Shown in pieces: positions 20,344 to 39,494 of a stretch of DNA of 47,250 bases. The DNA lies in NCBI GenBank assembly GCA_036564075.1, contig DATCLE010000165.1:1-47250 (forward strand), given 5' to 3'. The position numbers and the translations under genes were made by a program. The stretch comes from Dehalococcoidia bacterium. Lineage in GTDB: Bacteria; Chloroflexota; Dehalococcoidia; DATCLE01. A model generated the notes under the pieces. That model saw nothing but the letters and a program-made list of their open reading frames with translations, did no database searches and was not told where the DNA came from. The first letter of the stretch is position 1. Every line of letters starts with the position of its first letter.

Positions 20344-20525
20344 CCTTTCAGACGGCAGTATACATCCCCGTCAATGCGACATGCGTTCTGGTTTTGTCAC
20401 CCGCCTCTGGCGCCCCGCGCTGCCCCTGGCCTCTCCTTCCTCCGTCACTGGAGTCCCCGAGCCCTACTCCCGCTTCACCCCACAGGGTGCTCACCGCTCC
20501 CCTGGCGGTGGAGGTGCTCCGACTC

Positions 20526-20543
20526 CGTTGCGAACGTTGCGAT
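20526..20543 (+). repeat. 9-bp tandem direct repeat upstream of the ABC-exporter promoter
   Basis: CGTTGCGAA CGTTGCGAT, ending 17 nt upstream of the -35 element. Confidence 0.5.
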
Positions 20544-20559
20544 GGGCTGTGTCCGGAGC

Positions 20560-20588
20560 TTTACCTTCGCGTAAAGGTAGAGTATAAT
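20560..20588 (+). promoter_or_regulatory. sigma-70-type promoter of the ABC exporter operon with embedded small palindrome
   Basis: TTTACC, 17-nt spacer, TATAAT. The palindrome CTTTAC-N6-GTAAAG (20559-20576) overlaps the -35 and spacer. Confidence 0.6.
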
Positions 20589-20631
20589 GGGGCACCTGGT
20601 GCAGCCGGTGAGTCTGGTAAGGTAGGTGCGC

Positions 20632-25982: not shown

Positions 25983-25996
25983 AGAACGGAAGTTCG
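25983..25996 (-). promoter_or_regulatory. LexA (SOS/Cheo) box at the ruvB promoter
   Basis: Minus strand reads CGAAC-TTCC-GTTCT, a perfect GAAC-N4-GTTC core, 14 nt downstream of the TATAAT. Confidence 0.6.
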
Positions 25997-26067: not shown

Positions 26068-26739
26068 TCAGGCCGTCCGCACCAGCTCTACTCCCAGCAC
26101 CGTGGCATCGTTGGGGAGCGTGTCCAGCGGGTGGGTGGCCGACCGCTGGATGCGGACGGTGGTGATGCGGGACGAGGCGGGCACCGCCGTGGCCAGCGTG
26201 CTGACCTTCAGGATGTGCTGCGCCGGCGCGGCTACGGCCGTCAGGCCCACCACGTCGGTCACGTTCAGGCTCTCGCCGCCGGCCACGTCCGTGAGGAGGT
26301 GCTGCCACACCACGTCGCCGCTGCCGGGGTCCGGATTGCTCCAGTAGAGCAGCACGTCCATGCGGCTCCAGAGCGGCGGCAGGACCACCGTGGCGGCCAC
26401 CGTCTCCACGTTGGTGGCGTCCAGCGCCCATGCCGCCCACCGGCCGGTGGCCTGGCCCACCAGCGCGGGCGTTCCGCCCACGGCCTCCATGGCGCCGGCG
26501 CCCAGGAACAGCCGCTCCCCGTTGCCCGGGCCCATGACGCCCAGGAGCAGCGTGTTCTCCGGGTTCGTCTCGTCAAAGGCCACCACGGCGCACGCCGCGC
26601 CGGGCGTGAGATGTGCGGGCGGCACGTGGGACGCCACCGGCACGCCGGTGTGGAAGACGGCGGTGCTCCCAGGAAGCTGGACCGTGGCGCGGTGGGTGGC
26701 CGCCTGGTAGGCGCGGACGATTCCCCTGAGCAGTTGCAT
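26068..26739 (-). CDS. phage-like hypothetical protein, possible tail-tip/needle (gpV/gp5-type OB-fold-like N-terminus)
   Basis: 223 aa, the last gene of the capsid-tail unit. The N-terminus LLRGIVRAYQAATHRATVQLPGS...GVPVAS...GAACAVVAFDETNPENTLLLGVM follows the pattern of baseplate-spike OB-fold domains. This is a weak assignment made by eye only. Confidence 0.35.
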   Translation of the reverse strand: MQLLRGIVRAYQAATHRATVQLPGSTAVFHTGVPVASHVPPAHLTPGAACAVVAFDETNPENTLLLGVMGPGNGERLFLGAGAMEAVGGTPALVGQATGRWAAWALDATNVETVAATVVLPPLWSRMDVLLYWSNPDPGSGDVVWQHLLTDVAGGESLNVTDVVGLTAVAAPAQHILKVSTLATAVPASSRITTVRIQRSATHPLDTLPNDATVLGVELVRTA

Positions 26740-26766
26740 CTCCCCCGTGCTCCTTCCGCCGCCGGC

Positions 26767-28728
26767 TCAGGGCAGCTCCAGCCGCAGCCGCTGCCGGTAC
26801 TGCCCGCGTTCCGGCCGGTACAGCCAGGTGATGGCCGCCACCCGTCGGGTCAGGGTTGGGAGCCCTGCCGCGGGATCGCTGACCGTCACCACGTCGTACA
26901 GCTCCTGGCCCGTGTTGACGGGCACCAGGACCTCGTGGGTTCCGCCGGCGCGCTCCGCCTCCGATAGCAGCGCCGCGGCGCGGCTGCCCGCCTGGGCCGC
27001 CGTGGTGAGGGTGAGGTCGTGGACCTGACGCAGCCGCAGCCCCCCGGCGGCGACGGAGCCGTGGGCGAACGCCTCCCCCAGGACGCCCGCGCCGAAGACC
27101 TGCACGGCGTTCCACGGCTCGGCCCGCGCCCGGTGCGTTGCCTCCAGCACGGGGTGGTCCGTGCCGTACGCGTAGGACGGCGGCTCCGCCGGGCTGGGGT
27201 TGCGGAGCACCAGCGTGCCCCCGTCAAACCGTACCCGGTCCGGCACCGCGGCCAGCAGGCGGCGGAGGACCACGTCGCCCCGCTCGCCGGGGTAGACGGT
27301 GAACGCCGGCTCCAGCGCCGTGAGCTCCGGGCTGGTCCCGTCTGACAGCACAGGCAGGCCGGCCCTGGCGCTGATCGCCGTGGCGATGAGGAAGATGTTG
27401 GCCGAGCCCTGATCCCACTGGAGCTGGCGGCGGGCGGTCCAAGCGGCCAGCCGGCCCCAGCCGTCGTGGCCCTCCAGCACCACCACGCCCCGGCCGCGGC
27501 CGGCGCTCCGGGTCACCGAGTGCAGCCAGTAGGCGGGCCGGGCGCCGTACTGCGGGCCGGCGGCGGTCACGTAGCCGAACTCCACGTCCACCTGGGCGCC
27601 GGGCGCCAGGCGGTCTCCATCCGGCGTGCCGGCGTGGTAGCGGCCGTGGTCGTTCCGTAGCGTCAGGCGCAGGCTGCCACCCTCCTCCTCCGAGGCCACC
27701 AGCTCCAGCACGTCCTCCTGGGGGATGGAGAGGGCGGGCTGCTCCGGCGCCAGCCAGACCTCCCGGCCGGTCACCAGCCAGTGCCCGGCGGCGGTCCGGA
27801 CCAGGGACGGCGCGGTGACGGGGTCCGCCTGGGAGGGCGCCGGCTCCTGCCACCAAGGCTCCAGCGACCCCGAGACGTTGGGCTGGTGGCTGAGCTCCAG
27901 CCGCCGGTAGGCCCCGCTCCCGGCGTCCTGCTCCACCCAGCCGGCGCGCAGCGTGTCGTAGGCCGCCGCGCCCACCCGCTCGTACGTCACGGGGGAGCCG
28001 GGGCTGGCCGTGGCGAGGGTCACGCGCGGGCCCCACGTATCCGCGGGCACGCCGAAGCCGGCGCCGTAGGCCAGCGCCCACACGTGGGCGCCGCCGGCGT
28101 CCGCCCCCGTGACGAAGAGGACGTAGTCCCCCAGGAACGCCACGGCCAGCCCCGTGACGGCCGCCGCCGCGTGCGGCCAGGGGGAGGCGGCGCCCCACAC
28201 GCCGGAGACGCGCCGCCGGACCGCCACGGCGTTCCCGGCGGCGTACGCCAGGAGCAGGTCCCCGTTGAAGGAGGCGGCCACGGCCACGTGCTGCACCGGG
28301 ACGGCCCCGGTGAGCGCCACCGAGGCCGCGCCGAAGGTCCCGCCGCCGTCCGTGCTCTCCCGCACCACCACCGTCGTCCCGTTGCTCTCCACTGAGGCGA
28401 TGACCACGCGGTTCGGCCCCGCCGTCCCCACGCCGGGGTCCACGGCGGCGGCAGGGCCCAGGCCGGTCCAGGACGTGAAGTCGCTGCCGGCGCCGGGGCC
28501 CGGCACCCGCTGCACCTGGAGGACGCCGCCGGCCACGCGGGCGCGCACCAGCGCGCCGTCCGGCGTCACCGCGGCGGCGTGGGGGGCGCCGCCGGCGGGG
28601 TCGCGGTAGACCAGGGCGTAGGGGGTTCGGGCCACGCCCGCCAGCTGGCTGCGCACGGTGACGCGGAGGGCGGGCGTGGCGTTGGGGCTGCGCTGGGCGG
28701 CCAGCAAGTCCGGCGGGAGGGTCCGCAT
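26767..28728 (-). CDS. phage-like large structural protein (tail/tailspike candidate) with Asp-box (BNR) motif
   Basis: 653 aa with the Asp-box STDGGGTF in a beta-rich N-terminal half. Its position after the capsid and adaptor-like genes fits a tail protein. The exact family is not recognised. Confidence 0.45.
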   Translation of the reverse strand: MRTLPPDLLAAQRSPNATPALRVTVRSQLAGVARTPYALVYRDPAGGAPHAAAVTPDGALVRARVAGGVLQVQRVPGPGAGSDFTSWTGLGPAAAVDPGVGTAGPNRVVIASVESNGTTVVVRESTDGGGTFGAASVALTGAVPVQHVAVAASFNGDLLLAYAAGNAVAVRRRVSGVWGAASPWPHAAAAVTGLAVAFLGDYVLFVTGADAGGAHVWALAYGAGFGVPADTWGPRVTLATASPGSPVTYERVGAAAYDTLRAGWVEQDAGSGAYRRLELSHQPNVSGSLEPWWQEPAPSQADPVTAPSLVRTAAGHWLVTGREVWLAPEQPALSIPQEDVLELVASEEEGGSLRLTLRNDHGRYHAGTPDGDRLAPGAQVDVEFGYVTAAGPQYGARPAYWLHSVTRSAGRGRGVVVLEGHDGWGRLAAWTARRQLQWDQGSANIFLIATAISARAGLPVLSDGTSPELTALEPAFTVYPGERGDVVLRRLLAAVPDRVRFDGGTLVLRNPSPAEPPSYAYGTDHPVLEATHRARAEPWNAVQVFGAGVLGEAFAHGSVAAGGLRLRQVHDLTLTTAAQAGSRAAALLSEAERAGGTHEVLVPVNTGQELYDVVTVSDPAAGLPTLTRRVAAITWLYRPERGQYRQRLRLELP

Positions 28729-28731
28729 GGG

Positions 28732-29343
28732 TCAGCGCTCCGGGCCGGCGGGGAGGTAGAGCCGGCGGACGCGCACGGCGTTCCGGCGGCCGTAGCGGGC
28801 CAGGCCGCGGGTGAAGGCGGCCAGCCGCTCGTTCCCCCAGGCCTGGAACTGACGCCAGACATCCGGGCCGCCGGCGTTCACCCGGTTCACGGCGTAGGCG
28901 GCCTGCTCCAGGGCGGCGTAGGCCGCCGCGCCCGCCGCCAGCAGCTCCTCCAACTGGGGCGGGACGGTGGAGCCGGCCGCGTCCAGGCTGTGGAGGCGGG
29001 CGTAGAGCACCCGCACCGGCTCCGCGGCCTGGGGCGCCGTCTCCACCAGCAGGGTCAGGGTGCTGCCCCGGCGGGAGAACGGCACGTAGGCGGGCGGGTA
29101 GCGGTCCACCGGGTACTCCACCGCGTCCACGCCGATGAGGCCGTCCAGGCCGGCCAGGGAGAGGTCCCGGCTGCCGGGCGTGGTGGTGAGCTGGGCCGCC
29201 GCCTCGTCCGGGATGGCCAGGCTCAGCTCCCGCAGCGCCCGCTGGATGTGCCGGTCCAAGGCGGCGTCCGGCCACCGCTGGGCCGTGGGGTCGGTGTCGC
29301 GCAGGTCCAGGCGGACCCGGGATCGCAGCTCCGTCAGGTTCAT
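28732..29343 (-). CDS. phage-like hypothetical protein in head-tail adaptor position
   Basis: 203 aa starting MNLTELRSRVRLDLRDTDPTAQRWPDAALDRHIQRAL, immediately downstream of the major capsid gene. The function is inferred from position only. Confidence 0.4.
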   Translation of the reverse strand: MNLTELRSRVRLDLRDTDPTAQRWPDAALDRHIQRALRELSLAIPDEAAAQLTTTPGSRDLSLAGLDGLIGVDAVEYPVDRYPPAYVPFSRRGSTLTLLVETAPQAAEPVRVLYARLHSLDAAGSTVPPQLEELLAAGAAAYAALEQAAYAVNRVNAGGPDVWRQFQAWGNERLAAFTRGLARYGRRNAVRVRRLYLPAGPER

Positions 29344-29367
29344 GGCTCCTGCCTCCTCCGGCCCAGC

Positions 29368-29393
29368 GGCCCCGGGGCGCCGTCCCCGGGGCC
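29368..29393 (-). terminator. intercistronic stem-loop after the capsid gene (partial terminator or mRNA stabiliser)
   Basis: Perfect 10-bp stem GGCCCCGGGG-N6-CCCCGGGGCC in the 64-nt gap between the capsid gene stop and the next ORF. Confidence 0.5.
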
Positions 29394-29407
29394 GCCCGCG
29401 GGCGCTC

Positions 29408-30295
29408 CTACGGCCGCACGCCGGTGAGCCGGGCCAGCTTCAGTGTGTTGAAGAGGGCCAGGGAGGCGTACCACTTGATGCGGGTACGGGTGGCGTCCTT
29501 CTCCTCCAGGCTGCCGATGCGCTCCACCTGGAGCCCGCCGGGGGAGGTGAGCCCGGCCAGCCCGCCCTCGCCGAACTGGACCGCGTAGATGGTGGAGCAG
29601 TCCGTGCTGGTGCCCACCGTCTGCGCGTCGGAGATGAAGTCGGACGTGGCCACCGGGATGCCGTCGTAGAACTGCACCATCTGGCCGAACTCGTTGCGGT
29701 CCGTCTCCAGGAAGGCGCCGGAGTTGCGGGCCAGGCTGTTGAGCTTGCGGCGGCTGCGTTTGCTCATGATGAGCAGGTCCGGCTTCCCGCCCTTCACCTG
29801 GTCCACCAGCTCGTCCAGCTTCTCCAGGGTGAGCTGGCCGCCGTTGGCGCCCAGGCTGATGGTCTGCTCCGGCGCGCACAGGCGGTCCAGGCCGTCGAAG
29901 GCCTTGGGGTCCGCCGTGCTGTCGCCGTTGATGAAGTAGTCGTCGAAGAGCCGCTGGACGGCCCGGGCCTTGAGCTGGATCACCGCCGTCTCCAGGTCCT
30001 GCACGTTGCTGCGGGTCTGGGCCAGGAAGTTGTCCACGTCGGCGTCGCCGCCCAGGATGCGGAGGGTAGCCGTCTCCTGCGTGAAGGTGGGCGTGCTCTC
30101 CGTCCAGATGTCGCCCACGGCGAAGAAGGCCGCTCCGGCCGGGGTGTTCTCCCGGTTGTAGGTGAGGCCGTTCCCCACGATCTCGATGAACGGCAGGTGC
30201 TGGAGCACCGGCGAGTCCATGATGACGGTCTCGATGACGCCCGCCAGCAGGACGTCGTTGGAGAGCTTGGATGCCTCCGCCAGGGTCAGGGCCAT
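29408..30295 (-). CDS. phage major capsid protein (HK97-fold type, no delta domain)
   Basis: 295 aa from MALTLAEASKLSNDVLLAGVIETVIMDSPVLQHLPFIEIVGNGLTYNRE, with C-terminal IKWYASLALFN. This pattern is typical of a phage major capsid family. GAGAGGAGG RBS; the track ORF start at 30364 is rejected. Confidence 0.75.
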   Translation of the reverse strand: MALTLAEASKLSNDVLLAGVIETVIMDSPVLQHLPFIEIVGNGLTYNRENTPAGAAFFAVGDIWTESTPTFTQETATLRILGGDADVDNFLAQTRSNVQDLETAVIQLKARAVQRLFDDYFINGDSTADPKAFDGLDRLCAPEQTISLGANGGQLTLEKLDELVDQVKGGKPDLLIMSKRSRRKLNSLARNSGAFLETDRNEFGQMVQFYDGIPVATSDFISDAQTVGTSTDCSTIYAVQFGEGGLAGLTSPGGLQVERIGSLEEKDATRTRIKWYASLALFNTLKLARLTGVRP

Positions 30296-30317
30296 GGAGT
30301 ACCTCCTCTCGGCTGCG

Positions 30318-30335
30318 GTCCTTCCCGGGAAGGAC
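30318..30335. repeat. perfect 18-bp palindrome in the capsid-gene leader
   Basis: GTCCTTCCCGGGAAGGAC, between the predicted transcription start and the RBS of the capsid gene. Confidence 0.8.
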
Positions 30336-30352
30336 GCCTTTGACCGGCCCGG

Positions 30353-30383
30353 AGGATAGCACATGTGTTCTATAGACCGTCAA
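30353..30383 (-). promoter_or_regulatory. promoter P2 (capsid-tail unit) with LexA/Cheo-box-like operator
   Basis: Minus strand reads TTGACG, 19-nt spacer, TATCCT. The operator TAGAAC-ACAT-GTGCTA (30357-30372) ends with its last two bases forming the TA of the -10. Confidence 0.6.
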
Positions 30384-30474
30384 CGGGCGCCTGTCACCGG
30401 CGGAATACCACACCCGGGGGTCCCGCCCCACGTCGCGGCGGGGCTACCGTGGAGGTGTCAAGGAGGTGAGCACC

Positions 30475-30870
30475 ATGCCGGCACGAACGCGCGAACGGGC
30501 CGCGGGCGGCGGCGGGACGTCCATCCCCAGCACCATCCTGCGGTCCGATAAGCACGCCCAGGAGATCTGGAAGAAGGCGCACGACAGCGCGGTGCAGACG
30601 TATGGCGAGGGCGGCCGGGCGCACCGCGTGGCCTACGCCGCCCTGAAGCACCAGTACGAGAAGAAGGGCGACCGCTGGGTCAGGAAGGAGCACCCCGGCC
30701 CGTCCGACCCGCAGGCCGCCCGTGGCCCCACCACGCGCCCCCGCTCCACCGACGAGCCGGCGGCCCCCACAGCGGGCGGCAAGGTGGCGCGGACGGAGCC
30801 GGAGGCGCGGGCCAAGGCCCGGGAGGCCCGCAAGGAGGCGGCGGCCGCCCGGCGCCGCCGCAGCCGCTGA
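30475..30870 (+). CDS. chaB: ChaB-family protein
   Basis: The ATG follows AGGAGGTGA. The ChaB pattern is present: IPSTILRSDKHAQEIWKKAHDSAVQTYGEGGRAHRVAYAALKHQYEKKGDRW. The C-terminal tail is basic and low-complexity. Confidence 0.75.
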   Translation: MPARTRERAAGGGGTSIPSTILRSDKHAQEIWKKAHDSAVQTYGEGGRAHRVAYAALKHQYEKKGDRWVRKEHPGPSDPQAARGPTTRPRSTDEPAAPTAGGKVARTEPEARAKAREARKEAAAARRRRSR

Positions 30871-30885
30871 CGCCCCGCCGTCCGG

Positions 30886-31788
30886 TCACGGGCCTCCGGT
30901 GGGGCCGCGCCGCAAGGCCAGCACGCCGGCCGCCCGCCAGCCGGCGGCGGCGGTCAGGGCCCCGGCCAGCACATCGGCCGTGTAGTGCTCGCCCAGGTAG
31001 ACCAGGGCGAAGCCCATGGCCGCCGCGTACCCGGCCCCGGCCACCCCCGCGGCCCGGCGGAGCCGCCACGCGGCGGTCGCCACCAGGACCGTCAGCGCCG
31101 TGTGCAGCGACGGCATGGCCGCCACAGGGTTGACGCCTGCCAGCTCGTGGCCCTCGCGGTACGCCGCTGCCCCTTCGCCCCCCACCAGTTCCGGCACAAT
31201 GCGGGTCACGGGGGGGATCTCGCCCGCCTGCGCCGCCAGCCACGGAGGCGCCGTGGGCACCGCGTAGCAGACCGCCAGGCCGATGTACGCGGTGATGAGG
31301 ACGGCGTACACGTACTGCCGGAAGACGGCTGCCCCGCACCGCCAGAGCAGCAGTGCCGTGAGGTGGGGCACCAGGAAGTAGGAGAGGTAGACGGCCGCCG
31401 TGACCACGTCCAGGGTGCCCGCCGTCCCCGGCGTGTGGAGGTGCTGCTGGAGCCAGACGGTGGGGATGCCGCCGGTCAGTGCCCGCTCCAGCACGATGAC
31501 GTAGCCGTACTGCCAGGGGACGCCCGTCTCGTCGCCGAAGCGGCGCAGGTACGCCCAGAGGACAAAGCCCACCAGGTAGAGGGCCGCCGCGCTGGAGGCG
31601 GCCCGCTGCCGCTCCACGAGGAGCAGCAGGCCGGCGGAGGCCGCCAGCGTCCCGCCGATGACGTAGGGCGGGACTTCGGACCTGGCCAGCAGCAGGGTCC
31701 AGAGGCAGGCCGCCAGGGCGGCCCACCGGCCGAGGTTCAACGCCGCGTGGGCCATGCCGTGGGCGGAGACCGGGGTGCGGACGTTCAC
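30886..31788 (-). CDS. PAP2-superfamily membrane phosphatase/phosphotransferase (PAP2_3-like)
   Basis: Multi-TM protein with MPSLHTA and GEHYTADVLAG phosphatase motifs. Start placed at GTG 31788, 4 nt after GGAGG; ATG 31755 is the alternative. The longer track ORF to 32061 is Arg/Pro-rich and overlaps the speH promoter. Confidence 0.7.
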   Translation of the reverse strand: MNVRTPVSAHGMAHAALNLGRWAALAACLWTLLLARSEVPPYVIGGTLAASAGLLLLVERQRAASSAAALYLVGFVLWAYLRRFGDETGVPWQYGYVIVLERALTGGIPTVWLQQHLHTPGTAGTLDVVTAAVYLSYFLVPHLTALLLWRCGAAVFRQYVYAVLITAYIGLAVCYAVPTAPPWLAAQAGEIPPVTRIVPELVGGEGAAAYREGHELAGVNPVAAMPSLHTALTVLVATAAWRLRRAAGVAGAGYAAAMGFALVYLGEHYTADVLAGALTAAAGWRAAGVLALRRGPTGGP

Positions 31789-32008
31789 GGCGCCTCCGGG
31801 CAAGGCTGGTGTGGTGGACGGTGGCAGCGCGCACGCCGCCGCTGGGATCATCGGCCGGCGGTCGCCCGGGCCTGAGGGCGGGCGCGGGGTTCCGGCGCGC
31901 GGCAGGCAGCGTGGGCCGGGCTGCCGCCCGCGGGCCAGGATCCTCCCGCGGCCTGCTCCTCTCCGGCCCCCGTTCCCCGTCACGGCCCCCGTTTTCCTGC
32001 ACAGAGCA

Positions 32009-32037
32009 TTGACCGGCGCCGCCGTGGATCCGACAAT
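32009..32037 (+). promoter_or_regulatory. promoter of speH-speE
   Basis: TTGACC, 17-nt spacer, GACAAT, 40 nt upstream of the GTG start. Confidence 0.5.
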
Positions 32038-32076
32038 GGACGGTGATTCCAGTCGGCCCATGGAGGTTACGGGGGG

Positions 32077-32427
32077 GTGAAAAGCCTAGGACGACACGTC
32101 ATCGTCGAGCTCTGGGGTTGTCAGAACATCGATTCCGAGTCCCTGGTCGAGGAGGCCTTGCGAGAGGCCGTGGACGCCTGCCAGGTCACCATGCGGGACC
32201 TGCAGGTGTTTCCGTGGGAGCCGTACAACGGGGTGAGCGGCATCGCCATCCTGGCGGAGTCCCACCTCAGCATCCACACGTGGCCGGAGTTGGGGTACGC
32301 CGCGGTGGACATCTTCACCTGCGGCGAGCAGGCGCGGCCGGAGGCCGCCGTGCCGGTCCTCCAGCGCTACTTCGTGCCGCAGCGGCTCAACGTCATGCAG
32401 GTGGACCGGGGGATCATCCTTGACTGA
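32077..32427 (+). CDS. speH: S-adenosylmethionine decarboxylase proenzyme (pyruvoyl, small bacterial/archaeal class)
   Basis: 116 aa with GRHVIVELWGC and the self-cleavage/pyruvoyl motif AESHLSIHTWPE, followed by VDIFTCG. Confidence 0.92.
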   Translation: MKSLGRHVIVELWGCQNIDSESLVEEALREAVDACQVTMRDLQVFPWEPYNGVSGIAILAESHLSIHTWPELGYAAVDIFTCGEQARPEAAVPVLQRYFVPQRLNVMQVDRGIILD

Positions 32428-33379
32428 CGGCGGCCTGTGGTTCGGGGAACCGCCACAAGCGGGGCAGCAGCCACTCCTGCTGGTCCGCGCTTCTTTGCAC
32501 CGGCGCCGCTCCCGCTACCAGACCATTGAAGTCCTGGAGACGGCCCTCTTCGGCCGTACCCTGGTCCTGGACCAGATCATCCAGACCACGGAGCGGGACG
32601 AGTTCTTCTACCATGAGATGCTGGTCCACCCCGCCATGACGGCGCACCCGGCCCCGCGCCGCGTCCTGGTCATCGGCGGGGGCGACGGCGGCGCCCTGCG
32701 CCGTGTCCTGGAGCACGGGGTGGAGCACGCCACCCTGGTGGAGATCGACCCGGAGGTGGTGGAGGTGAGCCGCCAGCACCTCCCCTCCGTCAGCGCCGGC
32801 GCCTTTGACGACCCGCGGGCGGAGCTGGTGTTCCAGGACGGCTACGCCTTCGTGGAGGAGCGGGCGGCCGCCCGCTCCGCCCCGCGGTACGACGTGGTGA
32901 TCGTGGACGCGCCGGACCCCATCGGTCCCGGCAAGCGGCTGTTCACGCCGGCGTTCTACCGCGCCCTGCACGACGTCCTTACGGAGGACGGCTTGGCGGT
33001 GGTGCAGAGCGAGTCGCCGCTGCTCATGGCCACGCAGACGGCGGCCACCTTCCTGCACCTGCGGGGCGCCTTCCCCACCGCCCGCACGTACCTGGGGGCG
33101 GTGCCCGCGTACCCCGGCGTGCTGTGGAGCTTCACCATCGGCTCCCGCCGGCACGACCCGGCGGCCGTGGAGCCGGCGGAGCTGGAGCGGCGCGTCCAGG
33201 AGCGCGGCCTCCTGACCCAGTACTACACGCCCGCCGTGCACCGGGCCGCCTTCGCGCTGCCCGCGTTCCTGGAGCGGTTCCTGGCGGACTCCGCGGCGGC
33301 GGGCGAGCCGGCGGACCGGCACCCCTTCTTCCCCGTGGCCCAGGGCATCACCGTGGCCGAGCCGCCGCCCGGCGGCTGA
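32420..33379 (+). CDS. speE: spermidine synthase (polyamine aminopropyltransferase)
   Basis: TTG start overlapping the speH stop. Motifs: QTIEVLE...GRTLVLD...ERDEFFYHEMLVHP, VLVIGGGDGGALR, and DVVIVDAPDP. Confidence 0.9.
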   Translation: MTDGGLWFGEPPQAGQQPLLLVRASLHRRRSRYQTIEVLETALFGRTLVLDQIIQTTERDEFFYHEMLVHPAMTAHPAPRRVLVIGGGDGGALRRVLEHGVEHATLVEIDPEVVEVSRQHLPSVSAGAFDDPRAELVFQDGYAFVEERAAARSAPRYDVVIVDAPDPIGPGKRLFTPAFYRALHDVLTEDGLAVVQSESPLLMATQTAATFLHLRGAFPTARTYLGAVPAYPGVLWSFTIGSRRHDPAAVEPAELERRVQERGLLTQYYTPAVHRAAFALPAFLERFLADSAAAGEPADRHPFFPVAQGITVAEPPPGG

Positions 33380-33433
33380 GCCGGGCTGGACGCTGCGGCG
33401 GGAATACGGTATCCTGAAAACAGGCGTTGACGG

Positions 33434-33510
33434 GGCGCATTCGTCTAGCGGCCCAGGACGCCGCCCTCTCAAGGCGGAGATCAGGGGTTCGAATCCCCTA
33501 TGCGCCACCA
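33434..33510 (+). tRNA. tRNA-Glu (anticodon CUC), CCA encoded
   Basis: GGCGCAT acceptor stem paired with ATGCGCC, and an anticodon stem CCGCC/GGCGG with loop CTCTCAA. The T-arm is AGGGGTTCGAATCCCCT and the 3' end is ACCA. The sequence is collinear with E. coli tRNA-Glu. Confidence 0.93.
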
Positions 33511-33516
33511 GACGCC

Positions 33517-33545
33517 CGCGGGCCGGACAGAACGTCCGGCCCGCG
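33517..33545. terminator. bidirectional stem-loop between tRNA-Glu and the coiled-coil gene
   Basis: 12-bp stem CGCGGGCCGGAC-agaac-GTCCGGCCCGCG. Confidence 0.55.
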
Positions 33546-33572
33546 CTCGTTCTCCCGCCGTCGCCCCTGCGC

Positions 33573-34076
33573 TCACCCCCGGGACGTGCGCAGCCCGTGG
33601 GCGATCTTGTCCCGCGGGCTCAGGCCCGTGAGGTCCGTCCCTGTGCGGGGCGGCGCTCCCGGCGGCACGCGGCCGCGGCGGGCCTGGGCCTCCATCTGCT
33701 CCCGCACGCGCGCCACCGTCTCCCGCGCCCGCGCCAGCGCCCCGTCGATCTCCTCGATGCTGTCGCCCGTCACTAGGTCGGCCGGTAGCTCCGGCTCCGC
33801 CCGCAGCGCCAGCTCCCGGTAGCGCGCCGCGGCCGTGGTCAGGCGGCCCTGGAGCTCCTCCACGCTGCTCCGGAGGGAGGCCGCCTCCTGCTCCCGCGTC
33901 CGCGCCGTCTCCTCCGCCGCCGCCAGTGCCTGCTCCAGCGCCGCCGTCCGCTCCTCCAGGTGGCGGGCCCGCGCCTCCCGGTCCGCCGTCAGGGCCGCCA
34001 GCCGCTCCAGCTCCGCCTGTGCCTCCGCCAGCTCCTCCTGGAGCGCCGCCAGTTCCGGATCCTGCTCGTCGCTCAT
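33573..34076 (-). CDS. acidic coiled-coil protein with basic C-terminus (phage scaffolding-protein candidate)
   Basis: 167 aa. Heptad-rich ELAALQEELAEAQAELERLAAL...ALEQALAAAEE precedes an Arg-rich tail. It lies between portal and capsid in gene order and is driven by a promoter with the same operator design as those two units. Confidence 0.5.
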   Translation of the reverse strand: MSDEQDPELAALQEELAEAQAELERLAALTADREARARHLEERTAALEQALAAAEETARTREQEAASLRSSVEELQGRLTTAAARYRELALRAEPELPADLVTGDSIEEIDGALARARETVARVREQMEAQARRGRVPPGAPPRTGTDLTGLSPRDKIAHGLRTSRG

Positions 34077-34115
34077 GGGGTCTCCTCCGTGCTCCGTCCT
34101 GGGATCGACGCCCGC

Positions 34116-34145
34116 AGGATAGAACGCATGTTCTCATCCCGGCAA
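34116..34145 (-). promoter_or_regulatory. promoter P3 (scaffold-like gene) with LexA/Cheo-box-like operator
   Basis: Minus strand reads TTGCCG, 18-nt spacer, TATCCT. The operator gAGAAC-ATGC-GTTCTA (34120-34135) has a perfect GAAC-N4-GTTC core abutting the -10. Confidence 0.6.
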
Positions 34146-34267
34146 CGGCCGGGCGTCACCTCGGGTCTCCCTACGGAATGGGCCCGCCCGTGCCGATACT
34201 GAAGGAAGGCACCCGTCTCAGGCCCGCAGGCGACCCCGCGGCCTTTCCGGCTGGTGATGGTGTTCAC

Positions 34268-35386
34268 ATGCACACAGTTCGCCGTCTGCTGGACGGTCTG
34301 AGGCCGCTGCCCGACCCTGCCCGCCAGGAGCGGGAGCGCCAGACGGCCATCCTCCGCGTGGTCCTGCGCCTCAACGATGTGGCGCTGGTGGCCTTCGTCT
34401 TCCTGGCCGTCGTCTCGCCCACCGTGCGGGACCGGCCGGAGGTGGCGCTGGGCGTGCCCCTCTACGTCCTCCTCTTCCGCGCCGTCCTGGCCCTCTACCT
34501 GAGCGACCGGATGTGGGCCTGGGGGCGCCGCGTGCGGAACCCCCTGCTCCTGACCGCCCTCTCCGGCGCGCCGCCCGTGGCCACCGCCCTCTGCTTCGGC
34601 TACGCCGTCGCCGTCACCGGCGGCGTCCACTCCCCCTTCGTGCCGGTCTTCGTGGTGGCCATGGTCTTCCCCGTCTCCCTGTTCCCGGACTGGCGGGGCC
34701 TGGCCATTGCGCTGGTGCAGCAGGCCGTCCTGGTGATGGCTTGCCTCTCCACCAAGCTCCACACACCGCTGGAAGACGCCCTCTTCCTGGTCATGCTGTT
34801 CGGCGTGCCCGCCGTGGTGGTGCCCCTGGCCCGGAACGAGCAGCGCTACCGGGTCCTCTCCGCCGTGGACGCCCTCTCCGGCGTCATGCTCCGCCGCCGC
34901 TTCGAGGAGCTGGCGGAACGACGGCTGGCGCGTCGCACCCGGCGGGCCGGCGGCGTGGGGCTGGCCATGCTGGACGTGGACCACTTCAAGGCCATCAACG
35001 ACGCCGTGGGCCACCTCCACGGCGACCGCGCCTTGCGCGCGGTGGGACAGGCGGCGCGGGAGGTGCTGAACCCGGCGGACCTCATCGGCCGGATGGGCGG
35101 CGATGAGTTCGCCATCCTCCTGTTCCGCCGCACCCGCCGGGAGGTGGAGGCGGAGCTGGAGCGCCTGCGGCGGTGCGTGGCGGAGCTGGATCTGGGACGC
35201 CAGGCGGATGGGGCGGGGCCGCAGCGCATCACCGTGAGCATCGGCCTGGCGTGGTCCACCGCCCGGCAGGTGCGGCTCCTGGAGCTGCTGTCCGCCGCGG
35301 ACGAGGCGCTCTACCGCGCCAAGGAGCGCGGCCGGAACCGGCTGGAGGTGGCGCCGCTGCCGGCGTGGGCCGGACGCGTGGCCTAG
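34268..35386 (+). CDS. membrane-anchored GGDEF diguanylate cyclase
   Basis: About 5 N-terminal TM helices, then DVDHFKAINDAVGHLHGDRAL...GRMGGDEFAILL (intact GGDEF) and LYRAKERGRN. Start at ATG 34268; the upstream part of the track ORF is antisense to the coiled-coil gene. Confidence 0.88.
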   Translation: MHTVRRLLDGLRPLPDPARQERERQTAILRVVLRLNDVALVAFVFLAVVSPTVRDRPEVALGVPLYVLLFRAVLALYLSDRMWAWGRRVRNPLLLTALSGAPPVATALCFGYAVAVTGGVHSPFVPVFVVAMVFPVSLFPDWRGLAIALVQQAVLVMACLSTKLHTPLEDALFLVMLFGVPAVVVPLARNEQRYRVLSAVDALSGVMLRRRFEELAERRLARRTRRAGGVGLAMLDVDHFKAINDAVGHLHGDRALRAVGQAAREVLNPADLIGRMGGDEFAILLFRRTRREVEAELERLRRCVAELDLGRQADGAGPQRITVSIGLAWSTARQVRLLELLSAADEALYRAKERGRNRLEVAPLPAWAGRVA

Positions 35387-36693
35387 CCCCGCTCCGCCGC
35401 CCGCTCCTCCAGCCAGCGGCGGAACTCCAGCTCCGGGTCCTCCACCCCCAGCTCATCGGCGGCGCGGCGGCGGCTGTAGACGCCCGCCTCCACCAGCGCC
35501 GTCACGTCGCCCACCTGGCGGCTCCGGTCCTGCGGCAGGACGGGACCCCACGTCACCCGGTGCCGCAGCCGGCCGAAGGACTCGCCCGTGGCGGCCTCCA
35601 GCACCCGCAGGATCAGCTCGTTGCGGCGGCGGTAGGCCGCCGTGCGGATCAGCCGCTTGCGCTCCACCTTCTTCAGCAAGGGGTCCAGCTCCGTGTTGAG
35701 GGCCACGCCGGAGAGCCCCTGCCGGTTCTCGCCGAAGGCCGTGCGCGGGCTCTCGCCCAGGTCGTGCAGGGTGCGGTAGATGAGGTCCACGTACTCCGCG
35801 TGGAGCCGCACGCCGCCGCCCTGGAGGAGGTCCAGCAGGTACGCCCGTGCCCGCTCCGGCAGCTCCCACACCGCGCCCGGCTGCACGGCGATGTCCTGGC
35901 TCTCCGTGACGTTCTCCAGCACGGCGATGGGGTTGCCGGAGAGCTCCAGGATCATGGAGAGCTGGGAGAGGGCGCGGTTCAACTCCCGCACCGGCTCCAT
36001 GATGGGCGGCAGGTCGCTCACGCCCCAGAACTGCTTGGGCTCCCGCAGGTTGGGGTAGATGACGAAGGGGATGACGCCGTAGGGGTTGGGGCGGGCCTCC
36101 ACCAGCCGGTCCGCCACCCACAGGTCAAAGGTGCGGTCCGTCCACACCTCCACCACCGTGCAGCGGCGCCGTCCCTGGGGCGGCTGCACGCCGTGGAGCA
36201 GCGCCGCCTCCTCCGCGGAGAGCTCGTACCGGCTGGCCACGCGCCAGACGCGTGTCACGTCGTCCCCCGCCCACCAGACGAAGAGCCCCTGCACGTCCGG
36301 CGCGGAGATGCGGACGCGGCGCTCCTGCGGGTCCCACGTCACCTTGAAGGCGCCGTCGCCCAGGACCGCCGCGTCCACCTCCGTATCGAAGTCCAGCTGG
36401 GCCAGGTCGTTCTCGTCCCAGATCCGCCGCAGCGTCTCCTCCGCCCGCCGGGCGCGCTCCGCCGCCTCCGGGCCCGGCTCCACCGGGTCCACGCTGAAGC
36501 CGCGCCCCAGCATCAGGTAGGAGGTGGTCTTGTCCACCAGCGCCTTCGCGTAGTTGAAGGTGAGGCGGCGTTCGTTACGGCGGCGCGGCCCCGTCCACTG
36601 CTGCCCTTGGTAGAAGGCCAGGTTCTCCGCGTAGGCCCGGAGCCGGCCCTGGTCCATGCGGTTCAACTGCTGGGGGATAGGGACCTCCCTCAC
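35383..36693 (-). CDS. phage portal protein (SPP1 gp6-like family)
   Basis: 436 aa with a GTG start 7 nt after GGGAGG. NLAFYQGQQW...RRLTFNYAKALVDKTTSYLMLGRGFSV is the characteristic N-terminal portal motif. Confidence 0.75.
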   Translation of the reverse strand: MREVPIPQQLNRMDQGRLRAYAENLAFYQGQQWTGPRRRNERRLTFNYAKALVDKTTSYLMLGRGFSVDPVEPGPEAAERARRAEETLRRIWDENDLAQLDFDTEVDAAVLGDGAFKVTWDPQERRVRISAPDVQGLFVWWAGDDVTRVWRVASRYELSAEEAALLHGVQPPQGRRRCTVVEVWTDRTFDLWVADRLVEARPNPYGVIPFVIYPNLREPKQFWGVSDLPPIMEPVRELNRALSQLSMILELSGNPIAVLENVTESQDIAVQPGAVWELPERARAYLLDLLQGGGVRLHAEYVDLIYRTLHDLGESPRTAFGENRQGLSGVALNTELDPLLKKVERKRLIRTAAYRRRNELILRVLEAATGESFGRLRHRVTWGPVLPQDRSRQVGDVTALVEAGVYSRRRAADELGVEDPELEFRRWLEERAAERG

Positions 36694-36721
36694 GCCTGCA
36701 CCTCCCGCGTCCGTCCCGCCG

Positions 36722-37042
36722 TCACGCCCGTGCCCGCCTCGCGCCGCCCTGCACCGGCGCGCCGGACGCGGCGCAGCGGCTGAGGATGCGGAACACCGTC
36801 CGGCGCGAGAGCCCGAACCGCGCCGCGATCTCGTTCACCGGCACCCGCTCCTGGAGCCGCAGCCGGACCACCTCCGCGTCCCGCGCCTCGTTCAGGATCT
36901 GGCGCAGGCCGCCCGGCACATCGTAGCGGCACTGGGGCAGCGGGCACCGCAGGCAGGACGGCGAGACCTCGCAGCCCACGTCGCGGTACTCCTGGTGTTC
37001 CGGCAGACCGTCCTCGCAGATCTCTCCACGCACCCGTCTCAT
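36722..37042 (-). CDS. Cys-rich N-terminus + helix-turn-helix protein (function unknown)
   Basis: 106 aa with C9-x14-C24-x5-C30-x2-C33-x4-C38, then VPVNEIAARFGLSRRTVFRIL (sigma-r4/Hin-like HTH). It lies between TerL and portal. Confidence 0.55.
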   Translation of the reverse strand: MRRVRGEICEDGLPEHQEYRDVGCEVSPSCLRCPLPQCRYDVPGGLRQILNEARDAEVVRLRLQERVPVNEIAARFGLSRRTVFRILSRCAASGAPVQGGARRARA

Positions 37043-37045
37043 GGC

Positions 37046-38419
37046 TCATCGCTCCCGCAACCTTCCTCTGGCGGCCCTGGGCAGCAGTCCCGCCGCGGCC
37101 TCCACCGTCAGCGCCAGGCTCATGAGGTAGTCGTCGTGCCCCTCGGCCGGGTCCACGAAGAAGCTCATGGTCCGGTTGGGACGGTAGATGGCCCGGGCCA
37201 GCTCCAGTTCCCGCCGGCACTCCGCGTACTCCGCCGACCCGTCCGCGGCGTGGAGCCGTAGCTGGCCCCCGTTCACGGCGGCCAGCAGGGCGAAGCCCAG
37301 GCGGGACTTGCTCTCCGCCGTGAACCGGTAGGGGCGGACGGCCGCCTCGCCCAGCGTCCCCGTGAGGAGGCGCGCCACCGTCTCACCCAGGCCCGTGGCG
37401 TCCACCGCCACCCGCCGGACCGCCCACGTCCGGCGCAGCAGCGCCGCAACCTGCGCCACCAGCGCGTCGTGGGGTTCGCCGCGCCAGCGGTAGAGGGCCA
37501 CCACCTCCAGCGCCGGCTCCCGCACCACCTCGCCCGCCGGCGGGAAGGCTGCGCGGGCCACCGTGAGCACTGTGGCGTCGTGGCGGGCTGCCGCGGCCCC
37601 GTCCGCCGCCTCTCCCGCCACGTCCAGCCCCGCCACGTACGTCTCCCCCGGCCGGGCGCCCGCCTGGCGCGGATGCCGCCCCAGCAGCAGCGAGAGCTGC
37701 GCCGGGGAGAGCAGCCGGCCCCCGCCGGCCAGCGGCCGGAGGCAGTACTGCGTCTGGAACAGGGGGTGGGCCTCCCCAAGCCGCTCCCGCTCCGCGGCCA
37801 CGTAGGCGGCGTAGCTGGGGTTGTGCCGCGCCACCTCCTCCCAGCCGATCTGGAAGTGACGCCGCACCCCGTCCCGGCGCTCCTGCGCCAGGTGGTGCTG
37901 GCGCATCCGCTCCAGCAGCGACGACTCTTCCCACGCCGTGCCGTAGAAGACCACGGTGGCGTTGCGGGCCGCCGCCATGGGCCGGAAGTCCCTATCGAAC
38001 TTCTCCGGGTCCACGTCCTGCGCCTCGTCCACCTCCAGCAGCGTGTCCGCCGTGTGGCCCACCACGTTGCTGGCGGGCTCCGCGGAGAGGAAGACCTGCC
38101 GCGCCCGCACCAGCCGGACCACGTGACCCGCCTCCACCCGGTACACGCGGCCGAAGCCGCACTGCTCCAGCCGGTCCCGCAGCCGCCGCAGGCTGATGCG
38201 CGCCTGGGGCGAAAGGGTGGGAGCCGCCTTCACCGCGTCGCCGCCGTGGAAGGCGTTGGCCGCCAGCAGCAGCGCCTCCAGCTGCGCCGAAAGCTCGTTC
38301 TTCCCGCCCTGCCGCGCAATCTGCACGGAGAAGCTCAACCCCCGCCGGTTCCGCACGCTGTCCAGCACCGCCCGCACCACCTGCCGTTGGTAGGGCCGCA
38401 GCGGCGGCATCCCCTCCAT
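37046..38419 (-). CDS. phage terminase large subunit
   Basis: 457 aa with LRPYQRQVVRAV, Walker A-like ARQGGKNE and Walker B LLEVDEAQD. The C-terminal nuclease-like half includes YVAGLDVAGE and HDDYLMSLAL. Confidence 0.8.
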   Translation of the reverse strand: MEGMPPLRPYQRQVVRAVLDSVRNRRGLSFSVQIARQGGKNELSAQLEALLLAANAFHGGDAVKAAPTLSPQARISLRRLRDRLEQCGFGRVYRVEAGHVVRLVRARQVFLSAEPASNVVGHTADTLLEVDEAQDVDPEKFDRDFRPMAAARNATVVFYGTAWEESSLLERMRQHHLAQERRDGVRRHFQIGWEEVARHNPSYAAYVAAERERLGEAHPLFQTQYCLRPLAGGGRLLSPAQLSLLLGRHPRQAGARPGETYVAGLDVAGEAADGAAAARHDATVLTVARAAFPPAGEVVREPALEVVALYRWRGEPHDALVAQVAALLRRTWAVRRVAVDATGLGETVARLLTGTLGEAAVRPYRFTAESKSRLGFALLAAVNGGQLRLHAADGSAEYAECRRELELARAIYRPNRTMSFFVDPAEGHDDYLMSLALTVEAAAGLLPRAARGRLRER

Positions 38420-38428
38420 GCCCGGCCC

Positions 38429-38635
38429 TCACTCCATCACCTTCAGGACCACCTGCGTCGCCACGGCGCCGGCGATGACGAAGATCAGCCCGTTCACGCG
38501 GGCCTTGATCTCCTGCACCTGCGCCTCCAGGTGGCGCAGCCGCTCCTCCGTCACCGCGTGGAACGTCTCCTCCCGGTCCCGGGCCCGCCCGGCCCGTGCT
38601 ACCTCCCGGATCGCCGATCCCAGTTCATCCGTCAT
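38429..38635 (-). CDS. small coiled-coil protein with C-terminal TM helix (XhlA/holin-accessory-like)
   Basis: 68 aa. LRHLEAQVQEIKARVNGLIFVIAGAVATQVVL has the architecture of XhlA-type proteins. Its start overlaps the upstream gene by 11 nt. Confidence 0.5.
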   Translation of the reverse strand: MTDELGSAIREVARAGRARDREETFHAVTEERLRHLEAQVQEIKARVNGLIFVIAGAVATQVVLKVME

Positions 38636-38957
38636 GGCCGTCCTCGCCGTGCAGCAGATCGCCCATCTGGCGCAGCAGCGCCGCCGCACGCTCCCCCAGC
38701 GTCTCGCCGTCCTCCTGGGAGATGCGGTACCGTGTCCGTACCGCCCTGATGAGGAGGTCCAGGCCCCGGTACATGAGGGGTAGGTCCTCCGGGTGCTCCT
38801 GGAGCGCCGCCCAGAGCTTGGCCCGCAGCACGGCGATCTCCTGGTCCAGGCCCTCCACCTCCCGGGCCGCCGCCAGCGCCTCGCGCTCCGCCTCCGTGAG
38901 GGCCCGCTCATAGAACGCCTGCGCGCTGACCGGCCGCCGCGTCCGCTTACCGGGCAT
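38625..38957 (-). CDS. hypothetical helical protein with basic N-terminus (terminase small-subunit candidate by position)
   Basis: 110 aa starting MPGKRTRRPVSAQAFYERALTEAEREAL. It lies upstream of TerL, with 11-nt overlaps at both ends. Confidence 0.45.
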   Translation of the reverse strand: MPGKRTRRPVSAQAFYERALTEAEREALAAAREVEGLDQEIAVLRAKLWAALQEHPEDLPLMYRGLDLLIRAVRTRYRISQEDGETLGERAAALLRQMGDLLHGEDGHDG

Positions 38958-39096
38958 CGCTCTCCCCCAGCACGTCCAGCAGGTCCTGCACCGCCTCCCG
39001 GGGGAGCGCCTCCGCCGCCCGGACCACGCCCAGCAGCAGGTACAGCGCCACCACGTCCCAGGCCCGCCGCTCCAGGGCACGCGCCATGGCCGTCAT
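38947..39096 (-). CDS. hypothetical 49-aa protein with one hydrophobic helix
   Basis: Hand-translated product: MTAMARALERRAWDVVALYLLLGVVRAAEALPREAVQDLLDVLGESDAR. AGGAGGG lies 5 nt before the ATG. It is below the ORF-track size cutoff. Confidence 0.4.
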   Translation of the reverse strand: MTAMARALERRAWDVVALYLLLGVVRAAEALPREAVQDLLDVLGESDAR

Positions 39097-39106
39097 CCCC
39101 GCCCTC

Positions 39107-39400
39107 CTAGCCGCGCAGCGCCCGCCGTGCGATCATGCCCGTGGCCACCAGCGTGCCCGCCGCCACCAACCACCGGCCCGCCGACGGCAGGAGCGACGCC
39201 GCGCCCGTGGCCGGCAGCGCCGCCGCCGCCGAGGCCGATTGCAGCGCGATGCCGCAGAACAGGAGCGCCAGCACGCCCGCTGCCAGCCGCCGTCCGCGCG
39301 TCCGGGCCCGGCTCCGGACGTACCGCGCGAAGTACCAGCCGTTGACCGCCGCACAGGCGCCCGTGACGCCAGCCAGCGCTGTGGTGAGGGGATCCGGCAT
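39107..39400 (-). CDS. small membrane protein (three hydrophobic segments, holin-like topology)
   Basis: 97 aa and the first gene after promoter P1. Hydrophobic stretches are separated by an RSRARTRGRR loop. Confidence 0.5.
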   Translation of the reverse strand: MPDPLTTALAGVTGACAAVNGWYFARYVRSRARTRGRRLAAGVLALLFCGIALQSASAAAALPATGAASLLPSAGRWLVAAGTLVATGMIARRALRG

Positions 39401-39449
39401 CTGCCCTGTCCGTCTCCATCCGTGTGCTCCCCGCGTTCAGGTGAGCCTG

Positions 39450-39479
39450 AGAGTAGAACAGATGTACTACACCTGTCAA
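39450..39479 (-). promoter_or_regulatory. promoter P1 (terminase-portal unit) with LexA/Cheo-box-like operator
   Basis: Minus strand reads TTGACA, 18-nt spacer, TACTCT. The operator TAGtAC-ATCT-GTTCTA (39454-39469) abuts the -10. Confidence 0.6.
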
Positions 39480-39494
39480 GCGACGGATGGCAAG

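Follow-up and report, generated by a model that had tools for sequence, protein, structure and literature searches.

The DNA examined in this study, referred to as the window, is the full 47,250-bp contig DATCLE010000165.1 of a metagenome-assembled 'Dehalococcoidia bacterium' deposited at NCBI, and features a G+C content of 73%. Its minus strand encodes, between positions 26068 and 39493, a set of phage-derived head, packaging and tail genes among which cellular genes are interspersed. This element probably constitutes a new, independently domesticated particle system of phage origin that is host-fixed and host-maintained, resembling either a gene transfer agent (GTA) or the element PBSX. A previous inspection of the same DNA without database searches (the sequence-only reading) had favored domestication over a decaying remnant, a view now strengthened by conserved synteny, mostly intact reading frames, purifying selection, co-divergence with the host and the lack of an integrase in closely related loci.

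Genes in the window were called via the G+C content at third codon positions (GC3) and subsequently checked by profile searches against Pfam, PHROGs and NCBIfam. Both approaches back every major gene call of the sequence-only reading, and the capsid, portal and terminase assignments were each confirmed by the profile searches. The phage-derived genes would be organized in three transcription units, namely g97-g49-g110-g68-TerL-HTH-portal (the packaging module, with TerL being the large terminase subunit and HTH a helix-turn-helix protein), the scaffold gene, and capsid-adaptor-g653-g223 (the capsid–tail module). The rest of the contig is cellular, encoding DnaJ, ClpB, two-component systems, ABC exporters, RuvB, PilZ, HIT and HD proteins and an acyl-CoA dehydrogenase. 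Among the called open reading frames (ORFs) of the contig, no Pfam match to an integrase, recombinase, repressor, replication, tape-measure, tail-tube or endolysin protein was obtained, and neither flanking direct repeats nor a tRNA-derived attachment (att) repeat were seen around the element, in agreement with the absences listed before. The element thus differs from an ordinary prophage, which would be a contiguous genome bounded by att sites and equipped with an integrase or recombinase, in that its genes are non-contiguous and lack both integrase and repeats. The GC3 values of the element genes (0.93–0.98) equal those of the host genes, and the composition is uniform over the module junctions. 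The element is therefore ameliorated to its host, as had been estimated by eye from its G+C content.

Orthologs of the capsid protein with 65–77% identity were found in 40 GTDB species of Dehalococcoidia/Chloroflexota, several of them located on contigs of 0.15–3.6 Mb, with some of the records being titled 'chromosome'. Mapping of the window proteins on these relatives (loci designated by L-numbers in the following) revealed the recurring order g110-(g68)-TerL-HTH-portal ... scaffold-capsid ... adaptor-g653-F9, with intervals of differing length and content between the modules. The chromosomal address is likewise shared. In L071 and L070, two large and annotated contigs, acyl-CoA dehydrogenase, HIT and HD genes are followed by the packaging module as in the window, and the genes are arranged as four small ORFs-TerL-HTH-portal, an insert, scaffold-capsid-F8 and, further on, adaptor-g653. 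As determined by Pfam searches, an insertion sequence transposase is the sole mobility gene among the neighbors in these two loci. A ruvB gene is located a few kb past the tail module in L004, L010, L037 and L039, and the address HIT-HD ... ruvB recurs in several genomes. The expectation of conserved synteny is hence borne out, in module order across species as well as in address. In the synteny groups A and B, the stretch within 10 kb of the capsid gene contains just a part of the set, either scaffold-capsid only or capsid-adaptor-g653-F9, and these partial sets reside amid genes for MacAB-type efflux systems, aconitase and acyl-CoA synthetase.

Ratios of nonsynonymous to synonymous substitution rates (dN/dS), obtained as pairwise Nei–Gojobori estimates, amounted to 0.26 for the portal, 0.27 for the capsid, 0.30 each for TerL and the adaptor, 0.44 for the HTH gene, 0.51 for the scaffold and 0.54 for g653, compared to 0.19 for RuvB as the control; since dS is compressed by a GC3 near 0.95, these values are rough and probably represent upper bounds. 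All ratios for the element being below 1, they indicate that the head, packaging and tail genes are together under purifying selection, a prediction of the sequence-only reading. The claim that all reading frames are intact holds for the window and for most orthologs, which are full length, whereas a few genes in the relatives are split or truncated. Furthermore, the mean distance between capsid proteins (0.10–0.11) was compared with that of flanking host proteins in identical genome pairs. Four host families proved to be more diverged (0.17–0.34) and two (F46 and F47) less diverged than the capsid, and the divergence of the capsid correlated with that of most host families (Spearman 0.56–0.83). 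These correlations suggest that the capsid co-diverges with its host. Together with the shared address, the dN/dS values below 1 and the monophyly described below, they argue for vertical inheritance.

To place the element among phages, the IMG/VR database was scanned with TerL, yielding about 20 contigs at 47–53% identity, mostly with 47–59% G+C. These uncultured, compact temperate phages (L050–L069) are referred to as Class I, and the integrase-less clade of the window as Class II. Class I phages carry homologous g110-TerL-portal-scaffold-capsid-adaptor-F9-HTH-g653 genes at about 50% identity, with the same TerL motifs and the promoter cassette described below. Unlike in the window, the cluster is compact and unbroken, tyrosine integrases are present, the G+C content is lower, and g97, g49 and g68 are missing. 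The HTH gene is located upstream of g653 in Class I but between TerL and portal in Class II. Among 110 ORFs located beyond the shared cluster on 15 Class I contigs, Pfam identified eight tyrosine integrases, one Amidase_2 and one Phage_rep_O protein, and HNH as well as ParA-like proteins. In L062, a tRNA-Val gene adjoins the integrase, and no att repeat was found in the examined part of that contig. None of the eight integrases gave a tblastn match in the window and the 48 close loci. In neighbor-joining trees of both portal and TerL, the integrase-less elements formed one clade free of phage intruders, so that Class II, as judged from these trees, is monophyletic and of single origin. The sequence-only reading had regarded relatives within complete, integrase-bearing prophages as a refutation. 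Such relatives do exist at about 50% identity, but they represent a distant sister lineage in other hosts that does not include the window's clade, and thus reveal the type of the ancestor without refuting domestication. In addition to integrase loss and splitting, Class II has apparently gained g97, g49 and g68 in the packaging operon relative to these phages. The N-terminal motif GNQNARKHG of the protein at the small-terminase position, conserved among the phages, seems to have been lost in Class II, where an Arg-rich segment takes its place.

Each of the three units is preceded by a promoter of the same layout, as had been proposed from the letters. On the minus strand, the promoter of the packaging module (P1, 39450..39493) comprises TTGCCA (39488–39493), the −35 hexamer TTGACA (39474–39479), the box GTACATCTGTTC (39456–39467) and the −10 hexamer TACTCT (39450–39455). 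The scaffold promoter (P2, 34116..34159) is composed of GTGACG, −35 TTGCCG, the perfect box GAACATGCGTTC (34122–34133) and −10 TATCCT, and that of the capsid–tail module (P3, 30353..30397) of GTGACA, −35 TTGACG, the box GAACACATGTGC (30359–30370) and −10 TATCCT. The common design reads, from 5' to 3', (G/T)TG(A/C)CA, approximately 8–10 nt, −35 TTGAC(A/G), 6–7 nt, a 12-nt palindrome of the GAAC-N4-GTTC type and, with zero gap, the −10 hexamer TAYYCT. Screening of 1.37 Mb on both strands with a strict box-plus-−10 pattern returned 16 matches, nearly all of them immediately ahead of a packaging, scaffold, capsid or F8/tail module, and a relaxed scan of all fetched sequences returned 39 unique instances. 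All three module promoters escaped a generic sigma-70 scan, as TATCCT and TACTCT resemble the −10 hexamer TATAAT only weakly. The perfect GAAC-N4-GTTC box on its own was discarded as a conserved signal, as it is not kept upstream of orthologous genes and only the composite of box and −10 hexamer is; perfect boxes elsewhere lie mostly inside coding regions and are probably chance occurrences.

Class II genomes possess two to three copies of the cassette, one per separated module, whereas Class I phages possess one copy ahead of g110-TerL. The promoter is thus ancestral and was multiplied, or kept, where the cluster became split. Each copy has flanks characteristic of the type of module it precedes, so that promoters of one type are orthologous between species; orthologs of P1, for instance, were identified in L006, L039, L070 and L071 and in the Class I loci L051, L055 and L061. 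The presence of the promoter at every separated module is hard to explain without selection for co-expression of all modules. Scaffold-type promoters additionally feature TGTCAA or GTCGA about 13 nt downstream of the −10 hexamer, inverted with respect to the upstream GTGACA, so that an inverted repeat brackets the promoter (window 34095–34110, L001, L003, L004, L005, L029, L039, L041, L042 and L070); the downstream element may be a second operator. In a second clade (L011, L018, L019, L020, L025 and L036), the scaffold gene is not preceded by a box promoter; instead, a conserved TTGGAGATCGCGC, often with GATC-containing flanks, is located at about 9300–9450 in most of these loci, which suggests a change of regulator. 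In one clade (L018, L020, L023, L025, L027, L028 and L036), the intergenic DNA around the scaffold and capsid genes is filled with 7-nt tandem repeats such as (CCAGTAA/CCAGTGA)n and (GGTTCTA)n, and in L002 a tRNA-Sec gene (1817–1913) is positioned directly upstream of the promoter of the packaging module.

The position of the palindrome between −35 and −10 suits repression. Its GAAC-N4-GTTC pattern matches the Gram-positive LexA (Cheo) consensus (PMC3323433), and on account of this motif resemblance, we lean towards host LexA as the protein bound there. In the window, a perfect GAACTTCCGTTC (25984–25995) just downstream of the TATAAT promoter of ruvB represents a candidate SOS box. The LexA of Dehalococcoides reportedly binds the GAAC-N4-GTTC motif. 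Several points speak against the LexA step. The assignment is one of motif resemblance, many of the boxes read GAAC-N4-ATTC, and the perfect box ahead of ruvB in the window is not kept in L010 and L039. Moreover, the whole 45-bp promoter is conserved as one unit, which a regulator of the element's own, dedicated to it, would account for equally well, the HTH protein of the element being a candidate for this alternative binder. Genes for LexA and RecA are absent from approximately 1 Mb of fetched loci.

Within the packaging module (minus strand, as all genes of the element), small ORFs had been reported at 38429–39400. They are indeed present, but the overlapping ORFs of 151 and 160 aa were wrong calls, and the region comprises four genes of 97, 49, 110 and 68 aa. 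The product of g97 (39107..39400) is a small membrane protein with a hydrophobic segment at residues 38–56 and a candidate holin or membrane component; g49 (38947..39096) is a small conserved ORF (MTAMARALERRAWDVVALYLLLGV...) with 49–58% identity to its counterparts in L001, L006, L039, L070 and L071; and g68 (38429..38635) encodes a coiled coil followed by a C-terminal transmembrane segment, a candidate lysis or membrane-anchoring protein. These three genes are confined to Class II, and one transmembrane segment each is predicted for g97 and g68. The helical protein g110 (38625..38957) is encoded directly upstream of TerL in Class I and Class II throughout, a gene position that marks it as the putative small terminase subunit (TerS).

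TerL (37046..38419), annotated at NCBI merely as a hypothetical protein, was recognized as an ATPase with an RNaseH-like nuclease by Terminase_6C (3.7e-8) and TerL PHROGs. As deduced from the alignment, all of its catalytic motifs, namely Walker A, Walker B and the aspartates of the nuclease, are intact and follow the same pattern as in the phage relatives. The Walker A motif of the family reads (A/S)RQ(G/A)GKNE, with Asn in the usual Ser/Thr place, and is conserved in phages and domesticated elements. In total, 3263 TerL homologs were found at E ≤ 1e-20. Cultured relatives are nearly missing, the best match being Bacillus phage vB_BboS-125 with 33% identity over 80% of the protein, and exact-sequence look-ups with the capsid and TerL proteins gave no match. 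The HTH protein (HTH106, 36722..37042) combines a Cys-rich N-terminus with a HTH_23/Sigma70_r4-like helix-turn-helix and matches the late transcriptional activator family phrog_836 (4e-6); it is a candidate activator or regulator encoded by the element. The portal protein (35383..36693) was identified by SPP1_portal (1e-20) and phrog_64 (4e-30).

The scaffold-like protein (33573..34076) is an acidic coiled coil with a basic C-terminal tail, its body having a pI of 4.5 and the last 37 residues a pI of 12, and its gene directly precedes the capsid gene in most relatives. The major capsid protein of 295 aa (29408..30295), for which the start was corrected from 30364 to 30295, adopts the HK97 fold and belongs to the epsilon15 gp7 family (NCBIfam MCP_gp7_epsi_15, NF045672, 214 bits; phrog_212, 2e-77). 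A gp7-type capsid with a separate scaffold and no protease domain found corresponds to the epsilon15/SU10-like arrangement. The nearest cultured phages with a capsid of this family (about 42% identity over the full length) are the Pseudomonas PaMx11/Ab18-like phages, Xanthomonas Xp15 and the Clostridium vB_CtyS phages, featuring genomes of 55–60 kb, and several of them are named siphoviruses. In a subgroup of Class I (L050, L052, L053, L056 and L067–L069), the capsid carries an insertion of about 65 aa (360 aa vs. 295–307 aa; e.g., L052 5246–6328), which may be an added surface domain.

The head-to-tail adaptor of 203 aa (28732..29343) matches SU10_adaptor (PF24175, 3e-11). Since an SU10-type adaptor occurs without any tube or tape-measure gene, the tail is presumably short. 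The former label 'P22-like podovirus' is only partly supported, given that the capsid family also occurs in siphoviruses. The tail protein g653 (26767..28728) contains an N-terminal beta-propeller with one Asp-box (STDGGGTF). A structure model of g653, built on a shallow alignment as the protein search gave four sequences only, reached a mean predicted local distance difference test (pLDDT) score of 60, with a confident beta-propeller N-terminus and a poor C-terminal third. Its fold matches were generic beta-propellers and a weak tail-tubular-B match, making it a candidate for either a nozzle (tail tubular B-like) or a receptor-binding protein. The last gene, g223 (26068..26739), encodes a conserved N-terminal domain of 70 aa (F9) and a C-terminal domain of 150 aa unique to this genome. 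The F9 family comes after g653 in the relatives, and the domain likewise forms the N-terminus of a protein of 270–290 aa in Class I phages. A conserved N-terminus joined to a unique C-terminal domain is typical of receptor-binding proteins, and g223 is thus a candidate tail fiber or receptor-binding protein. In sequence-profile searches, g110, g653 and F9/g223 had no PDB match, and Pfam and PHROGs returned no match for g97, g49, g110, g68, the C-terminal domain of g223, F8, F57, F9 and the Class I counterparts.

The cellular genes are inserted at two junctions. In the window, a GGDEF diguanylate cyclase gene (34268..35386, plus strand, likely true start 34268; GGDEF 2.7e-35) occupies the portal–scaffold junction, where it is specific to this genome. 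The scaffold–capsid junction harbors an insert (30475..33510) that is missing from this junction in all relatives and consists of chaB (30475–30870, plus; PF06150, 5e-18), PAP2 (30886–32061, minus), speH (32077–32427, plus) and speE (32420–33379, plus), the last three being profile matches, and a tRNA-Glu(CUC) gene (33434–33510, plus). The chaB gene noted before is real but lies on the plus strand, the minus-strand ORF of 99 aa being spurious. The portal–scaffold junction holds a reverse transcriptase (RVT_1) and STM3845 in L071 (13029–15099), and DUF4411 and a HTH_3/Peptidase_M78-type gene in L070 (13788–15426), where PMT_2 is also found between modules. The suggestion that relatives share the same interruptions is therefore correct for the junctions, which are identical, and incorrect for the inserted genes, which differ per genome. 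The L070 and L071 inserts resemble defense or toxin–antitoxin genes, and the junctions may be hotspots for accessory genes.

Such inserts lead to the alternative that survives best, namely a grounded defective prophage kept for another use, be it as hotspot junctions for defense and accessory genes or through single co-opted proteins, with the full particle pathway no longer operating. Apart from the defense-like inserts, the lack of any detected lysis enzyme and the restriction of groups A and B to scaffold-capsid or capsid–tail modules within 10 kb are in accordance with this view. We nevertheless regard it as unlikely, because the head, packaging and tail genes are jointly under purifying selection, the catalytic motifs of TerL are intact and the same promoter is found at every separated module, implying that selection has acted to keep the entire set jointly expressed, for which a mere hotspot scaffold would have no use. 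A second alternative is a virus that is still self-transmitting, i.e., an unconventional prophage with cargo and without a tyrosine integrase, packaging for instance in situ from an internal pac site. The completeness of its head, packaging and tail genes, their intact motifs, the retained ancestral phage promoter, and the size of its own genes (about 9 kb within a span of 13.4 kb, which might fit one headful) would be compatible with such a lifestyle. This alternative is improbable in view of the lack of replication, integration and immunity genes in the contig, the fixed address and the monophyly of the clade, a capsid divergence that follows the host genes with the capsid being more conserved than most of them, the fully ameliorated GC3, and modules that lie more than 10 kb apart in other genomes and are thus too dispersed for one headful. 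Finally, although the window is a metagenome-assembled contig, a chimera of phage and host reads produced by assembly or binning was rejected as hardly credible, since the interleaved architecture recurs in dozens of independent assemblies, including the 0.15–3.6-Mb contigs and 'chromosome' records, and the composition is uniform over the junctions.

Several observations also weigh against a host-maintained particle system. The organism is uncultured and represented by a metagenome-assembled genome. Neither a holin nor an endolysin is recognizable in the contig, the small-terminase role of g110 is deduced from its position, and g653 and g223 lack a firm structural assignment. In groups A and B, neither portal nor TerL was found within 10 kb of the capsid gene, so that parts of the clade may have lost packaging. 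The few split or truncated orthologs occur in L010, L015, L037 and L040 and could reflect decay or assembly errors. The roughness of the dN/dS estimates has to be considered here as well.

Assuming that the domesticated particle system is the correct reading, the following course of events is conceivable. The ancestor would have been a small temperate phage with an epsilon15-type capsid, from which the integrase and every other recognizable non-structural gene were lost. A repressor, most likely host LexA, would occupy the palindromes, and DNA damage or another stress would derepress all three transcription units at once. Scaffold, capsid and portal would then assemble procapsids, g110 and TerL would load them with DNA, the short tail would be contributed by adaptor, g653 and g223, and the small membrane proteins would aid particle release. 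As the element can neither excise nor replicate, the DNA packaged by an active terminase would come from the host chromosome. In this scheme, we infer the identity of the repressor, the induction, the roles of g110, g97, g49, g68, g653 and g223, the packaging of host DNA and its transfer to recipients.

A farther-reaching version, which we put forward tentatively and consider doubtful in its entirety, proposes a new, independent, phylum-level origin of a GTA-type particle in Chloroflexota, with an extant phage sister group that can be identified and with the junctions serving as high-frequency export sites. Integrase loss would have been accompanied by multiplication of the promoter–operator cassette, keeping the split modules co-regulated, by the gain of g97, g49 and g68 and by remodeling of the N-terminal motif of the TerS-position protein. 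Since the element does not excise, packaging from an in-situ start would favor the adjacent chromosome, and the variable defense and signaling cargo between the modules would be exported with it. If true, the junctions would be sites of a host-built lateral transduction.

Some features of the neighborhood are reported for completeness. Two adjacent PilZ paralogs (41433–42119 and 42183–42872, both on the plus strand) are located 2 kb past the packaging module, and cyclic-di-GMP genes cluster near the modules, comprising the GGDEF and the two PilZ genes in the window and a HD-GYP gene in L009. In the latter locus (5849–9852), the HD-GYP protein (HHERYDGAGYP) is encoded directly before the capsid promoter and after the genes for an ECF sigma factor and a putative anti-sigma factor, which lie behind a perfect-box promoter of the same design as those of the modules. 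The G+C content of the window drops to 0.63 at 20001–21000, overlapping the toxin–antitoxin islet formerly proposed at 19.7–20.3 kb; within this dip, a PAS histidine kinase gene ends and the first of two ABC exporter genes begins.

With respect to known systems, the best-supported analogy would be a GTA-like evolutionary status combined with a probable stress induction of the PBSX type. PBSX of Bacillus subtilis is chromosomally fixed and does not excise; upon induction by the SOS response, it packages host DNA. A Cheo-type box is seen in the element described here, which is likewise chromosomally fixed. PBSX is contiguous and myovirus-like and encodes its own repressor Xre and a lysis cassette (xhlA, xhlB, xlyA), whereas the present element is divided into modules, its tail set is podovirus-like, and neither a repressor nor an endolysin is recognizable in it. 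The Bacillus tectivirus GIL01 and CTXphi are temperate phages that use host LexA as their lysogeny switch and are autonomous viruses. Comparable to them, Class I phages and the window element carry a GAAC-N4-GTTC-type palindrome inside the promoter of a structural operon, LexA being a candidate binder here; in sequence, both viruses are unrelated to the element.

To our knowledge, the independent origins described for GTAs amount to a handful, none of them in Chloroflexota, and no description of a GTA-like element in this phylum was found in the literature searched. GTAs are a polyphyletic kind, defined by caudoviricete-derived genes, the lack of autonomous propagation, vertical inheritance with the host at a slower evolutionary pace than that of viral homologs, loci that may be scattered, packaging of mostly random host DNA with a part of the GTA genes at best, delivery to recipient cells and cellular control (PMC9662315). 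The element comprises caudoviricete-derived structural and packaging genes in a cellular genome, shows no means of autonomous propagation within the 47-kb contig and no integrase homolog in the 48 close loci, and is scattered, with three units split by cellular genes and, in groups A and B, modules separated by more than 10 kb. The RcGTA of Alphaproteobacteria (Rhodogtaviriformidae) resembles the element in that its head, packaging and tail genes stem from a phage and are accompanied by neither integrase nor replication genes, in vertical inheritance and slow evolution, and in genes beyond one locus (PMC9662315). Its control is wired into the host (PMC9662315), for which the candidate LexA-like boxes would be the counterpart in the element. 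In contrast to the siphovirus-like particle of RcGTA, the element, a putative particle system, descends from an unrelated ancestor with an epsilon15-gp7-type capsid, an SU10-type adaptor and a presumed short tail, and resides in Chloroflexota.

Such a system could be a route of gene exchange in abundant uncultured bacteria of soil and subsurface, and one promoter cassette repeated before dispersed phage structural modules offers a signature usable in searching for similar systems elsewhere. In addition, the states before and after domestication are both visible, since the integrase phages and the host-fixed clade share genes, motor motifs and promoter, so that the steps between them can be read off the comparison, namely the loss of the integrase, the multiplication of the promoter, the acquisition of membrane proteins and the remodeling at the TerS position. 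Unlike in RcGTA, variable cargo separates the modules at fixed junctions, and one promoter–operator cassette per module takes the place of control by GafA, CtrA and quorum sensing. Compared to the known GTAs, the other ancestor, the other phylum, the split architecture with variable cargo and the repeated promoter cassette are what is new in the element.

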